In this document: one piece after another, positions 33,103 to 41,537 of the stretch
How the letters are laid out: each line of letters begins with the position of its first letter
Numbering within the stretch: the stretch's first letter is position 1
Source: a virus
Lineage: Duplodnaviria > Caudoviricetes
Reading direction: 5' to 3' (one strand)
IMG/VR virus record: IMGVR_UViG_3300001598_000040
Location: 20,217-84,216 of that record
DNA: 64,000 nt
Made by a program: the position numbers and the translations under genes
The notes under the pieces: generated by a model
Seen by the model: the letters and a program-made list of their open reading frames with translations, nothing else
What the model was told of the DNA's origin: nothing
Database searches by the model: none

Positions 33103-33166
33103 AATGCCATAAAGAGGGATATATGGAAGTTCGTTTATTGCCGCAAAATCCTGCGGCAACAAACCG
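33103..33166. repeat. cassette-boundary module, copy A1 (degenerate 29-bp site plus 35-bp hairpin)
   Basis: ..ATATGGAAGTT then CGTTTATTGCCGC..GCGGCAACAAACCG. Confidence 0.6.
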
Positions 33167-33268
33167 ATCGTTAGGTAGGGGATGAGAGGGAGTACTGATA
33201 AATGGCTTAGGTATGCGGGTTTATGGGAAACACGGGTTTTAGAGCAAAGGGACGAGAATGCGGAAAAA

Positions 33269-33332
33269 GTTTCTATATATGGATAATTTTGGAAGTTCGG
33301 TTTGAGGCTAGCTTCGCGCCGCCCTCAAACCG
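33269..33332. repeat. cassette-boundary module, copy A2
   Basis: GTTTCTATATA-TGGATAA-TTTTGGAAGTT then CGGTTTGAGG..CCTCAAACCG. Confidence 0.7.
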
Positions 33333-33394
33333 CTCAAGCCTTTTGTGCAATTTGCACAAAAAAAGATATGGGAATAATTCCCATATCAGTTACT

Positions 33395-33700
33395 TTATTC
33401 CCTTTTACTTATATCAATTATAAAATCATCGGGATTGACAAAAATTTGAGTAATTGTAATATTTTCATCATATTCAAATTCTTCTATTGTGAGTGCTTTG
33501 CTAAAATTCGTTATAGTATATATTATTTCTGCGTGTTGACCACCATTTGGAAAACAGATAATATAACCGTTCATTTCTTCTCTATCACTCGATAGAAGAT
33601 AAAAATTTCCCTCATCATCTATAAATCCACTACTTTCTAATAAATCAAATTTTTTGTTCAGTTTTATATCTGTCATATTAACTTTTATCATATATAACAA
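33395..33700 (-). CDS. hypothetical protein
   Basis: ORF track; RBS. Confidence 0.55.
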   Translation of the reverse strand: MLYMIKVNMTDIKLNKKFDLLESSGFIDDEGNFYLLSSDREEMNGYIICFPNGGQHAEIIYTITNFSKALTIEEFEYDENITITQIFVNPDDFIIDISKRE

Positions 33701-33739
33701 CTCCTTTTTTTCTCAAGGGGAGTATATACTCCCTTTCCG

Positions 33740-34150
33740 CTATTTACTATCATTCCGTCTAAACTTTAAATCTATTGAATACTTTTTACCTTTATATTCA
33801 AAATTTATCTGTTTCTGCGGGTTGATAATTTCAACATTGTCAGTATTCATTAAATCATTTTTTAGTGCGGTTGATATAAAATCAATTAATTCAATTTTAT
33901 TACTATCAATTTTTTGTGTGCGTGTTGCCTTTCGTCCGTACCCATTAACAACAGTTACAACCTTTGCACAATTCTTTAAGTTTTTAATAGCTTTTTTCTG
34001 CTCTGCGGTTAAATCGTCTTCAGCTTGCTTAGTAGTCATTTTATCAACTTTTTTATCATATTCAATGATGTCTAAAGCTTCTTGCTCTGTGCAACCTAAT
34101 CTTTCAATTAGGTTGCACACTTGGTTGTTTTGATTATTCATCAACTTCAA
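33740..34150 (-). CDS. hypothetical protein
   Basis: ORF track; overlaps the upstream gene. Confidence 0.6.
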   Translation of the reverse strand: MKLMNNQNNQVCNLIERLGCTEQEALDIIEYDKKVDKMTTKQAEDDLTAEQKKAIKNLKNCAKVVTVVNGYGRKATRTQKIDSNKIELIDFISTALKNDLMNTDNVEIINPQKQINFEYKGKKYSIDLKFRRNDSK

Positions 34151-34520
34151 CCTCTGTGGTATCTTCTACCACAAGGCTATAAACCGATGACTTTTTGTCT
34201 TTAGTATTCTTTACTTTACCTTGTGCCACAAGCTCCGTCAATCTCGGTGTTAACTTTGATGTTGTATACTCATAACCTAAAGCTTTAACAATATCAGTAA
34301 CTTTATAAAGCATATTTTCTTCCATAACCGATAGAATTTCATTCTCAATGCTGATAAACTCTTCATTCGTCTTTTTAGCTTTGCTACCTGACTTTTTAGT
34401 TAACAACTCAATTTCGTGATTTGCAAAATCAATAAGCTCTGTTGCAGAATTGTCTTCAACATTTTCTAATACTTCAATAATTGCCTTGTACATTTCTTTC
34501 TTTGTTCTTGAAAATTCCAT
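34134..34520 (-). CDS. winged-helix protein (paralog of 25659-26045)
   Basis: DFANHEIELLTKK...KLTPRLTELVAQGKV...KSSVYSL. Confidence 0.6.
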   Translation of the reverse strand: MEFSRTKKEMYKAIIEVLENVEDNSATELIDFANHEIELLTKKSGSKAKKTNEEFISIENEILSVMEENMLYKVTDIVKALGYEYTTSKLTPRLTELVAQGKVKNTKDKKSSVYSLVVEDTTEVEVDE

Positions 34521-34566
34521 AATTTTACCAAACCTTTCTTTTTTTAAAATATTGTTTATTAGTTTC

Positions 34567-34603
34567 TGTAGGTGTTTTACAAGGTTTTATTCCTACAACT
34601 TGC
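34567..34603 (-). ncRNA. 37-nt predicted H-type pseudoknot in a 5' leader, copy 1
   Basis: GCAAG-U-UGUAGG-AAUAAAAC-CUUGU-AAAACA-CCUACA; a covarying copy lies at 35971-36007. Confidence 0.55.
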
Positions 34604-34651
34604 GGTACGGACACTTTAGTGAAATGAGGTTTTCTCTCATTCACTATAATC

Positions 34652-34680
34652 ATTATATCATACTTTTTTGCAAAAGTCAA
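34652..34680 (-). promoter_or_regulatory. sigmaA-type promoter
   Basis: TTGACT-17bp-TATAAT with extended TG. Confidence 0.8.
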
Positions 34681-34689
34681 TATACTTTT

Positions 34690-39333: not shown

Positions 39334-39683
39334 TCAATCTCCTCGAGCCAATATTTCTTTCTACAATCTTCACAATAATAAATACTACATTGTGATTTAT
39401 TACTTAAATTTGCATCTAAAGCACAAGGAGATATTTGAGAAAATCCATCTTCAGCTATTTTTGTGTTCGGAAACATTTTCAAAAACTCACTTTGTCTTGT
39501 CTTTGGCTGGTGCTTATCAATCCAATCGAGAATTATTTTGTTTGCTTTGTTAATCTCGTCTAAAATGTTTGTTCTGCTATAAAGACAACGAATGTTACAA
39601 ATAGGTCTAATCGGGCATTCCGCACATTCTTTAGCTGTATCACATATTTTCAATGTATCATAAATCATAGCTTTTCTATCCAT
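39330..39683 (-). CDS. Cys-rich protein (paralog of 28243-28767)
   Basis: CAECP..., KTRQSEFLKMFP...ISPC...CEDCRKKYW. Confidence 0.6.
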   Translation of the reverse strand: MDRKAMIYDTLKICDTAKECAECPIRPICNIRCLYSRTNILDEINKANKIILDWIDKHQPKTRQSEFLKMFPNTKIAEDGFSQISPCALDANLSNKSQCSIYYCEDCRKKYWLEEIE

Positions 39684-40086
39684 TAGTTTAACTCCTCTTC
39701 ATAGTAATTATTAATTTTAATTCTCAAATCTTTTAAACATTCATCACATAATTTAATATTTGCTTTTGGATATTCATTGAAACGAATTGTATTAATTTCA
39801 TCAAATAATTGATTACATCCAACACACAAATGTTTTGTTTTTAAAATATTCACCATTCTATATCAACTCACTTTCTTGATAATACCCCTACAATTACAGG
39901 AACAACTGTAACCATATAATAAGAAAATAACCTATCTTTTAAACTAACCGCCAAATTTTCCTTTCCATATTTCTTACAATCTTTATGGTATGCAATTAAT
40001 ATGTATAACAGTATCATTCTTTACCAACTCCTTTAATTTCTTCCCGCTCTTATCATTATATTTTCCTCCTTTCGGAGGGCTGATAT

Positions 40087-40440
40087 TCAGCCCTCCAGCT
40101 CTTCTATAAATCCTTTAAAATTTTGCCAACCTGTATGATAGAATAAAACCGCTTCCATAGTTTCTATATTATGTCCGCCTATCATTACCGCACCTCTAAT
40201 GAAATCCTCAGTGGCAATTCCCATTTCTACCAAATAATCCCACATCTCATCTGCACTTTGAAGAACATTTTCATTTACTTCATTCTCTAAAAATTCGTCT
40301 TCCATTTCATCAAGAAGGTTGTAGTAGTCATCTTCAATATCAATTCCATTTTCAAAATTTCTTGAAAATTCAAGTGATATTTCATCTTCCATACCTCTTC
40401 TTGAAATAATATCGTTTACCATTTGTTCTTGTGTCATCAT
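40087..40440 (-). CDS. acidic hypothetical protein (paralog of 40770-41039)
   Basis: EMWDYLVEMGIATE...IETMEAVLFYHTGW..F..FI. Confidence 0.6.
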   Translation of the reverse strand: MMTQEQMVNDIISRRGMEDEISLEFSRNFENGIDIEDDYYNLLDEMEDEFLENEVNENVLQSADEMWDYLVEMGIATEDFIRGAVMIGGHNIETMEAVLFYHTGWQNFKGFIEELEG

Positions 40441-40473
40441 ATCGACAACTCCTCTCTTTTATTTACTATAGTC

Positions 40474-40502
40474 ATTATACCATATATATATACATTTGTC
40501 AA
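40474..40502 (-). promoter_or_regulatory. sigmaA-type promoter
   Basis: Perfect TTGACA-17bp-TATAAT with extended TG. Confidence 0.85.
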
Positions 40503-40652
40503 TACCTTTTTGAAAAATAATTTAAATTTTTTTTTGATTTGTGAAATATCACCAAACTTTTGCCGTAAAATGTGATAATGTTTGTATATAATGCACAAAT
40601 CCGCATTTTGGGATTATTGGTAAAGACTGGAAGCGTTTCCAAAAGCTGGAAA

Positions 40653-40746
40653 TTTTCCCTATATATGGAAAAAGTGAAACTCGTTTTGTGCGTTAAAATT
40701 CAGCGCGCACAAAACGCTAAAGGTATGAGCCATTTCTTCTCATACC
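40653..40746. repeat. cassette-boundary module, copy E
   Basis: TTTTCCCTATA-TATGGAA-AAAGTGAAACT; CGTTTTGTGCG/CGCACAAAACG; GGTATGAG..CTCATACC terminator. Confidence 0.8.
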
Positions 40747-40769
40747 CTTAGCGTTATTTTGGTGAAGAT

Positions 40770-41039
40770 TTACTGTGCGTGTTTGTCCGCTATAAACTCT
40801 TCAAAAGTGTTATAGCCTGTACAGATGTACAAAATAAGCTCCATAGTTTCAATTATATTGCCGCACGCCTCAGTCATTCTATTAATATCTCTCGCAGTAG
40901 TAAGACCAGTTTCTATAAGGTAATCCCTCATCTCTCCCAAAAGTCTTGAGATGGGAATAAAGTTATCCTCATTGTCATAGTATCCGTCTAAATAGATGAT
41001 GTGCATAAAATTCATTTCAGTATGTGTCATAATAAACAA
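40770..41039 (-). CDS. hypothetical protein (paralog of 40087-40440)
   Basis: EMRDYLIETGLTT...IETMELILYICTGY..FEEFI. Confidence 0.6.
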   Translation of the reverse strand: MFIMTHTEMNFMHIIYLDGYYDNEDNFIPISRLLGEMRDYLIETGLTTARDINRMTEACGNIIETMELILYICTGYNTFEEFIADKHAQ

Positions 41040-41089
41040 TCTCTCTTTTATTAAATTAATGGTTCGTAGCTCTTCTTGACTACACCTAT

Positions 41090-41118
41090 ATTATATCATA
41101 GAGAAAAATATTTGTCAA
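41090..41118 (-). promoter_or_regulatory. sigmaA-type promoter
   Basis: Perfect TTGACA-17bp-TATAAT with extended TG. Confidence 0.85.
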
Positions 41119-41276
41119 TAGATAAAATAAAAGTTTGTATAATCTATACAAGAATACGGCTCGAAATATCAATTAGTTTGTGCAATATGCACAATCATAG
41201 AGGAAATTACCATAATATGGAAATGCTTCCAGAATGTGGCAAATTTTCCCTATATATCAAATTGGTAGAAAAGCCA

Positions 41277-41537
41277 TTAATTGGCTTTTCTTACCACTTC
41301 ACTATCCACTATTTGCCATTCCCGCATATCATCTTTGGTATTACCAATTTTTACCTTTACTGTATCGCCTTTACCAACACTGCTATTTTTGAATTGGTAC
41401 AATTGGTCATATATGGAAATGGTAACTATTCCCTTTTCTACCTTTAACGCTTTTCTCGTGTACTTTGTTCTTGTTGCCTCATATCCCACAACCGCAAAAC
41501 TACCTATCACCAACAAAACCGCTATAACTTTTTTCAT
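41277..41537 (-). CDS. small exported/membrane-anchored protein
   Basis: MKKVIAVLLVIG signal-like N-terminus; OB-like remainder. Confidence 0.6.
   Translation of the reverse strand: MKKVIAVLLVIGSFAVVGYEATRTKYTRKALKVEKGIVTISIYDQLYQFKNSSVGKGDTVKVKIGNTKDDMREWQIVDSEVVRKAN

Follow-up and report, generated by a model that had tools for sequence, protein, structure and literature searches.

A box-and-hairpin module at the cassette boundaries of SPbeta-terminase phages and its possible role in handling end-proximal DNA

What kind of element separates the small-gene cassettes of a gut phage? We addressed this in a 64,000-nucleotide stretch of viral DNA (the window), which is bases 20217-84216 of an 84-kb contig (IMGVR_UViG_3300001598_000040, hereafter G000; ~54% complete). 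A preliminary description had reported that cassettes between 33103 and 41300 are bounded by seven copies of a 29-bp sequence (the 29-mer), six of them followed directly by a hairpin, and had proposed a recombination site, a mimic of CRISPR (clustered regularly interspaced short palindromic repeats), or a shuffling spacer like the promoter early stem-loops (PeSLs) of phage T4. We find that the module is a real, family-wide composite element, apparently undescribed, which resembles cos in geometry and PeSL in location and has the defining features of neither. Our best reading, at a probability of roughly 0.45, is a duplex-DNA nucleoprotein site whose repeat would fold back and act in the handling of end-proximal DNA.

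Anatomy of the module

All seven 29-mers are present (33103, 33269, 36326, 37705, 38962, 40653 and 41244), and the six hairpins have the lengths and starts listed in Table 1. Their inner stems are unrelated and a terminator follows every copy except the first (A1), both as previously claimed; the A1 hairpin has two mismatches. A strict dyad count over 33000-42500, which omits A1 and includes one overlapping terminator, gave 6; of 300 dinucleotide shuffles, 298 had none and the other 2 had one each. No further stable hairpin with these ends was found in the whole 84-kb contig. The proposal that each interval holds complete minus-strand units stood for the sigmaA promoters, six of which lie on that strand, and failed for the 166-bp interval between A1 and the second copy, which has no gene. 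The most conserved part turned out to be an 8-bp box, absent from the preliminary description, that lies 76-77 bp upstream of every hairpin. The 29-mer, whose arms are not a dyad (3-6 of 11 positions self-complementary), is a lineage-specific piece of this larger module, and beyond its last ~5 nt it is unconserved in relatives.

The closest relatives of the sigma-like protein encoded beside the array are only 48% identical, and therefore all comparisons were made at the family level, on ~280 loci and 12 long genomes anchored on the sigma-like gene. The relatives share the layout of the window, with minus-strand cassettes of small genes running upstream of the sigma-like gene. In them the module has a constant order: the box TTTYRGGA comes first, then a spacer of ~70 bp and the foot AAAYT; next is an inverted repeat (CG...CG) that begins 77-79 bp from where the box begins, and CCNAA closes the unit. 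The conserved letters are limited to the box, the AAAYT, the CG at both repeat ends and the CCNAA; in the 37-mer class there is an additional conserved CG 11 bp inside the right end. The box, rather than the 29-mer, is what the family conserves. Inside the repeat the paired columns covary, with 1.0-1.9 bits compared with 0.1-0.4 bits when slid.

The spacing was reproducible. Of 706 distinct box sites, 525 have the foot and the first C at +77 to +79, and loci fetched after the pattern had been defined (the hold-out set) gave the same foot peak (135/271). A hairpin starts at +75 to +82 in 318 box sites, against 2-27 at control offsets; within the spacer, TTGAC peaks at +41/42 and TATAAT at +64/65. 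The cassette region holds 184 CG-to-CG hairpins in 1.62 Mb, compared with 27 in 1.75 Mb downstream. Performing whole-genome scans, we find that nearly all CG hairpins fall in one 9-20 kb early-gene block and in one orientation (14 in G006, 13 of them of 37 nt; 8 in G010, 9 in G011 and 11 in G007). A class of 'hairpin-less' family genomes was dropped, as those genomes carry 25-29 bp versions. No mirror-image box stands on the right-hand side of the hairpin (3/288), and a facing minus-strand promoter accounts for few copies (16/288).

Neither a literature search nor Rfam returned a description of the module. The earlier claim of an undescribed, structure-selected module at cassette boundaries, more than an extra terminator, is borne out. 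The module is a conserved non-coding element of SPbeta-terminase phages of gut and rumen with genomes of 100-200 kb, a large and widespread family most of whose members are uncultured. The YonF-type large terminase of the window is related to those of Enterococcus phages H1/EF1 (45%), Geobacillus E3, Tsamsa and SPbeta. When viral contigs were scanned for exact patterns, nearly all matches were at chance level. The matches in genome contigs were to contigs from metagenome bins of mixed taxa, and no host was identified from them.

Other repeats were noticed as well. A 17-bp palindrome, TTGTGCA-N3-TGCACAA, occurs in the window at 33344, 36251 and 41179. In relatives, pairs of TGCACAAA and TTTGTGCA are frequent in module spacers, and in one of them (L208, 2500-2900 and 6950-7250) the spacers are filled by dense repeats of TTTAGCG and TTTAGTCAAAT. 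A distant relative (L118, 3065-6230) has a 24-bp palindrome, AATTAGACCT-N4-AGGTYTAATT, beside the terminator at each cassette boundary, in at least 7 copies, together with 11-bp TATGAA repeats.

A proposed site on duplex DNA near a possible genome end

The repeat changes length in steps. Among 246 distinct repeats the lengths peak at 27 bp (85 copies), 36-38 bp (57) and 48-49 bp (10), with a shoulder at 40-41 bp (15 copies, from one group) and near-empty gaps at 30-33 and 43-47 bp (4 copies together). Measured from box to repeat end, the peaks fall at 105, 115 and 126 bp, which are 10, 11 and 12 turns at 10.5 bp. Counting over 88 lineages gave 48 short, 18 medium and 6 long, with 3 and 1 in the gaps; short and medium classes co-occur in 9 lineages. 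The hold-out repeats have lengths of 27 (41 copies), 37-38 (9) and 45-47 bp (3), so that the peaks at 27 and 37 replicate. In the 48-49-mers the stem is kept at 12-15 bp and the loop is longer by ~11 nt. We infer that a loop changing in whole turns has no obvious reason in a single-stranded hairpin and has one in a protein complex on duplex DNA. From B-DNA geometry, the values 27, 37.5 and 48 (6 + 10.5k) would correspond to a series of 5' staggers on one helix face.

We also asked whether the hairpin works as DNA or as RNA. The first ten pairs of 66 curated hairpins comprised 642 Watson-Crick pairs, 3 G-T, 4 A-C and 11 other mismatches, while control terminators of the same regions showed 33 A-C (G-U on the transcribed strand) versus 10 G-T. 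In the full hairpin set, G-T and A-C were 21 versus 18, with no strand preference. Wobble-type mismatches are half of all mismatches in this set, a share that transition bias could give. The features of a rho-independent terminator, a short-loop GC stem with a U-tract and G-U pairs on the transcribed strand, were not found here: a U-tract follows the hairpin on the plus strand in 1/288 copies. Loops are mostly of 9-24 nt, and on the other side an A-run precedes the hairpin in 56/288. Rfam searches at gathering and E-value thresholds gave no match at the modules.

Several observations lead to our reading of a protein-measured site on duplex DNA. The fixed spacing of ~78 bp comes together with whole-turn length steps; in the 48-49-mers the stem is kept and the loop gains ~11 nt, an extension that a free RNA hairpin should have no need of; the wobble pairs lack the strand bias that adjacent terminators have; ~80% of the copies keep the geometry without a sigmaA promoter; and the modules are confined to one region and one orientation. 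Lambda cos is an example of a box that, from a fixed distance, can set the place of staggered nicks on a dyad (PMC4856287). For the present module, we envisage that a phage protein, either one of the small winged-helix paralogues of the region or a terminase small subunit, would bind the box, and that this protein or a partner would engage both ends of the repeat on one helix face. After nicking at its base or exposure of a strand, the repeat could fold back as a hairpin or cruciform and give a protected or self-priming DNA structure every ~1-1.6 kb. More tentatively, the array would lie just inside a linear genome end, where its roles might be protection, staged entry after injection, replication restart or priming, or end processing.

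A candidate box-binding protein is the 128-aa winged-helix-like protein. It has homologues in 10/12 genomes, often as 2-4 paralogues within the module region, and is a core gene of the region along with an exonuclease-like protein (258 aa), present in 11/12 genomes. YonG-like and sigma-like proteins flank the region. An AlphaFold model of the sigma-like protein had no PDB match, and in the ESM Atlas the 127-aa and 246-aa proteins matched only unnamed viral clusters, plus one weak helix-turn-helix (HTH) lead.

The link to a genome end comes from terminal repeats of distant relatives. In the window, the module region has a repeat-rich, origin-like sequence on its left (31.9-33.0 kb) and, on its right, the strand switch ahead of the late genes (42.4 kb). 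In the family, a G tract lies at or near the right boundary in 113/131 loci; after it usually come the same box and, ~72 bp on, a foot-like word without hairpin. The leftmost modules of several genomes carry CATATGG twice and ATGGGGGTAC, the latter seen in G025 and G030; module 1 of the window resembles them in motifs and position. The terminal repeats of Tsamsa and Kirov, of 284 bp, were confirmed experimentally (PMC3903500, PMC10454425). When both phages are oriented like the window, ATGGGGGTAC lies 52-53 bp in from that end of the repeat which is on the terminase-gene side; a second G tract comes ~170-200 bp later, and the genes immediately inside this end are small and on the minus strand. 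Tsamsa also carries TTTCGGGA 41 bp before its terminal repeat, and c-st (404-bp terminal repeat) has a G5 motif at -55. All three phages, which share the terminase family, carry a G5-TA-type motif 52-55 bp inside the terminal-repeat end. Together, these observations suggest that the array lies just inside one physical genome end, probably near 32.8-33.1 kb in the window. The repeats of Tsamsa, Kirov and c-st differ from the module in that no CG hairpin was seen in them and the 78-bp geometry was not found; only short motifs are alike, such as the TTTCGGGA-type words at the Tsamsa repeat.

The right-hand G tract had itself been considered as the genome end, or the whole region as a long terminal repeat; this was revised because two such tracts exist in each of Tsamsa and Kirov, the tract within the short repeat being the one that matches the leftmost module of the family. 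Contigs matching the G6 pattern showed no visible ending at G6. Four loci (L121, L133, L179 and L375) begin at or just before a module promoter or hairpin; these may be assembly breaks at repeats or real ends.

Several points weigh against this reading of the module. The lengths are tolerant: the window copies, with repeats of 34-36 bp and 111-113 bp from box to end, fall 2-4 bp below the middle length peak, and one lineage (G007) has ~119 bp. The third length class is small (10-16 copies), and our hairpin detection favoured Watson-Crick stems. Where a promoter is present, the box stands at a typical activator distance, so the spacing can also be read as that of an activator site. No protein family tracks the long-hairpin genomes, a lack of co-occurrence explained by the 27-bp versions in the supposedly hairpin-less genomes. 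The genome-end link consists of short motifs in distant phages (26-31% terminase identity), each with two G tracts, and a ~250-aa gene beside the Kirov repeat has no detectable homology to the 246-aa gene of the window.

Competing explanations and known systems

If the module were instead a unit of transcription, the box, ~75 bp ahead of a plus-strand start, would serve as the site of an activator or repressor, and an RNA of ~60-90 nt would run from the hairpin to the bidirectional terminator. Such an RNA or its synthesis might serve as a decoy, an insulator or a shut-off of the early cassettes, with promoter-less copies supplied by a phage sigma factor or by cleavage of a longer RNA. A plus-strand sigmaA promoter (TTGACA-17-TATAAT) does end 5-10 nt upstream of 59/288 hairpins, including 8/9 long hairpins of G011, and is placed to start about at the hairpin. 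Its -35 and -10 elements stand at the fixed box offsets given above, copies with a promoter concentrate towards the left of the array (25 versus 7), and a sigma-like gene adjoins the region. The six window copies, however, have no plus-strand sigmaA promoter, and in some copies elsewhere only TTGACA is left beside the foot, the -10 being often gone and the hairpin kept. CCA or NCCA follows 65/288 hairpins, as in a tRNA minihelix, but is missing in 77% of the copies and in every window copy; a minihelix mimic (12-bp helix, 3' NCCA) was rejected on these counts. The absent G-U strand bias, the loop growth by whole turns and the lack of an Rfam match also speak against an RNA product, and we regard this explanation, the main rival, as possible rather than likely.

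The T4 PeSLs are ~100-bp intergenic repeats, made of a sigma70-type promoter and a stem-loop, between small early genes (Arbiol et al. 2010; PMC2839356). A spacer of this type would insulate cassettes and offer homology for Sak4-type annealing, its hairpin being a fail-safe terminator or RNA stabiliser. Both elements lie between small unknown early genes in a hypervariable region without a dedicated recombinase, a Sak4-like gene is present in the window, and the mechanism is described for T4-type phages (PMC2839356). To find where cassettes are exchanged, we located 196 non-redundant synteny breakpoints between close relatives. Ordinary minus-strand promoters contain 94 of them (35 expected), and modules only 8 (8.4 expected). 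The module is therefore not a preferred crossover site; the region shuffles PeSL-fashion through its promoter repeats, and the hairpin module rides along. The PeSL comparison thus fits the region and not the hairpin modules. In T4, genes are gained and lost by crossovers inside the PeSL, with mini-circles; its promoter drives the downstream gene, whose ribosome-binding site and start codon are also part of the repeat, and its loop is a variably placed terminator. The module promoter, in contrast, is antisense to the genes where present, and the module repeat is fixed in position, turn-quantised and without a U-tract. A 1.1-kb cassette indel between L132 and L134 ends in an A-tract 8-18 nt past the hairpin, as microhomology would give. 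Stems that differ among copies remove the homology, few hairpins have a U-tract after them (1/288) or an A-run before them (56/288), and the 78-bp ruler and the length steps stay unexplained, which makes a PeSL-like spacer improbable.

The same breakpoints largely refute structure-specific recombination sites, by which host XerC/D or an unrecognised recombinase would release cassettes as circles. In integrons, attC sites depend on structure over inner sequence, occur once per cassette and act as a DNA hairpin; they have RYYYAAC...GTTRRRY cores, extrahelical bases and lengths of 57-141 bp. The conserved outer bases and free, paired inner stems of the module recall attC, its first site often bears a promoter, and a shared first hairpin leads into a different cassette in each of L120, L132 and L134. 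Unlike attC, the modules end in CG...CG, with GTT...AAC only in the window lineage and in reverse order; they are nearly perfect stems of 25-50 bp without the attC core or extrahelical bases, no integrase accompanies them, and their cassettes have their own promoters. The eight module breakpoints are scattered at offsets 42-106, with no fixed crossover position. A tyrosine recombinase (PF00589) above the cut-off was found in none of 40 family genomes, including hairpin-rich ones that are 90-100% complete, nor in G000 (54% complete). The likeness of the 29-mer to dif, on which the idea of a dif- or attC-like site had drawn, is at background. A dif site has 28 bp, with two partly dyad 11-bp arms around 6 bp, a conserved XerD arm and a single fixed crossover position. 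Of the 22 arm positions of the quoted dif, the 29-mer matches 9-15, a score of at least 15 is reached at 32 further places in this AT-rich genome, and the sequence is unconserved in relatives. We hold such sites to be very improbable. Still further down stand solitary mimics of a CRISPR repeat and spacer (RNA anti-CRISPRs), in which the spacer would be inert and folded on itself; to these we give hardly any credence. The 35-38 nt of the window lineage equal a spacer in length, and some feet (GAAAC or GAAAT) resemble type I repeat ends. Yet many feet are AAATG or AAATT, and only ~5 nt of the supposed repeat are conserved upstream of the hairpin, against the conserved CRISPR repeat 5' of the handle. 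The 'spacer' ranges over 25-50 nt in helical-turn steps, with 27 nt the commonest length, and promoter copies start about at the hairpin, so that there would be no repeat to process. No array with the pattern appeared: a search of 185,579 genomes gave no exact match, and Rfam gave no CRISPR match in the window.

Returning to the site on duplex DNA, we compared it with further known systems. In lambda cos, a box of specific sequence and a dyad stand a fixed distance apart, the spacing matters, and the site is linked to terminase (PMC4856287); the module shares the geometry only. The cos site is single and of fixed sequence, whereas modules occur in up to ~14 copies with free stems and three lengths. 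The first-step-transfer region of T5/BF23 is likewise a terminal early region of ~10 kb with nuclease-type and unknown genes and a repeat-rich non-coding signal, but T5 has one repeat-rich stop region in its 9.7-kb terminal repeat (PMC10644984), and here one module recurs throughout. REP/RAYT and IS200/605 elements have a similar foot-plus-hairpin anatomy; no HUH transposase family was among the scanned window proteins, and relatives were not searched. In T7, a terminal-repeat duplication hairpin downstream of phiOR combines a promoter running into a palindrome near the end, and protelomerase ends form by fold-back of a nicked inverted repeat. Unlike the module arrays, both are single sites of fixed sequence. 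No protelomerase-like gene was recognised in the window.

Surroundings of the array and biological meaning

The features of the locus are collected in Table 1. We consider the left boundary a candidate origin and/or genome-end region.

Table 1. Features of the module region and its flanks (window coordinates; ORF, open reading frame).
Feature	Coordinates	Strand	Description
Left boundary	31921-33040		9-bp tandem repeats 31921-32030; four 21-bp repeats 32693-32797 (two inverted); C8 tract 32856; several GC hairpins
110-aa HTH ORF in left boundary	32316-32648		Weak initiator/DnaD-like matches
Module 1 (A1)	33055-33166	+	Box variant ATTTAGGA at 33055; spacer with ATATGG motifs; foot; imperfect 35-bp inverted repeat 33132-33166
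Module 2 (A2)	33221-33332	+	Box TTATGGGA at 33221; 35-bp inverted repeat 33298-33332
Intrinsic terminator, first minus-strand unit	33365-33387	-	
Cassette 1	33395-34520	-	101-aa ORF; ~127-aa virus-only protein; 128-aa winged-helix-like protein (34134-34520)
Cassette 2	34690-35947	-	258-aa DNA polymerase exonuclease subunit-like protein and 159-aa hydrophobic protein; promoters 34652-34680 and 36060-36088
Module 3	36278-36390	+	Box TTTTGGGA at 36278; 29-mer at 36326; 36-bp inverted repeat 36355-36390; terminator ~36403-36429
Cassette 3	36431-37611	-	PcfJ-like protein 36431-37519; promoter 37583-37611
Module 4	37657-37768	+	Box TTTCGGGA at 37657; 35-bp inverted repeat 37734-37768; terminator 37779-37802
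Cassette 4	37813-38867	-	198-aa and 86-aa ORFs; promoter 38839-38867
Module 5	38914-39024	+	Box TTTTGGGA at 38914; 34-bp inverted repeat 38991-39024; terminator 39033-39059
Cassette 5	39067-40502	-	Five small ORFs (88, 117, 57, 49 and 117 aa); promoter 40474-40502
Module 6	40606-40716	+	Box TTTTGGGA at 40606; 35-bp inverted repeat 40682-40716; terminator directly after
Cassette 6	40770-41118	-	89-aa ORF; promoter 41090-41118
Decayed module 7	41197-41291	+	Degenerate box 41197; partial 29-mer 41244; no CG hairpin; terminator 41267-41291
G7 tract, right boundary of region	42425-42431	+	
Family marker genes	42595-46638	+	Sigma-like protein (PHROG 5767), YonG-like protein, YonF-type large terminase

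The window further encodes a topoisomerase II, a ligase, a Sak4-like protein and a Thg1-type tRNA-His guanylyltransferase family match. A ROOL RNA (Rfam RF03087, 271 bits) lies beside five tRNA genes (19500-20093 and 20268-21151). The protein scan also gave a formate/nitrite-transporter-like protein, an isochorismatase-domain protein, an S-layer homology domain protein and two GIY-YIG endonucleases. Another cluster of hairpins is located at 30420-30660, and a gene of the structural module holds two 99-bp copies, 153 bp apart (53313-53564). Near-identical repeats of ~35 bp cover the ribosome-binding site and start of two adjacent genes (38409-38440 and 38717-38750); by coordinate arithmetic, an independent assembly of the same phage (L119) starts at about these repeats. 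In Enterococcus phage H1 (L498), word clusters at both ends of the cassette region (3880-4710 and 12930-13930) resemble host Rex boxes (TTGTGAA-N4-TTCACA) and CcpA cre sites, and could possibly be regulator decoys. H1, EF1 and VRE9, which are cultured relatives, share the gene order; H1 also contains TTTTGGGA words and, as judged by eye, a promoter with a short GC hairpin after it.

The two rulers, 78 bp from the box and whole-turn steps within a repeat of free sequence, give sharp predictions. For phage genomes in general, repeats that bound cassettes need not be crossover sites. If the module makes RNA, it would represent a new multi-copy family of phage small RNAs; should it work on DNA, it would have a bearing on how the ends of SPbeta-terminase phages are made, protected and replicated. 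A bolder proposal, which we consider doubtful, is that the arrays represent a novel type of phage DNA site. Their inverted repeats, free in sequence, would each have both ends nicked or gripped on the same face of the helix, would be positioned by a protein bound 78 bp away, and would fold back into DNA hairpins. If true, a large family of gut phages could in this way create a nested series of alternative genome ends, or points of self-primed restart, over the 10-20 kb next to the end.

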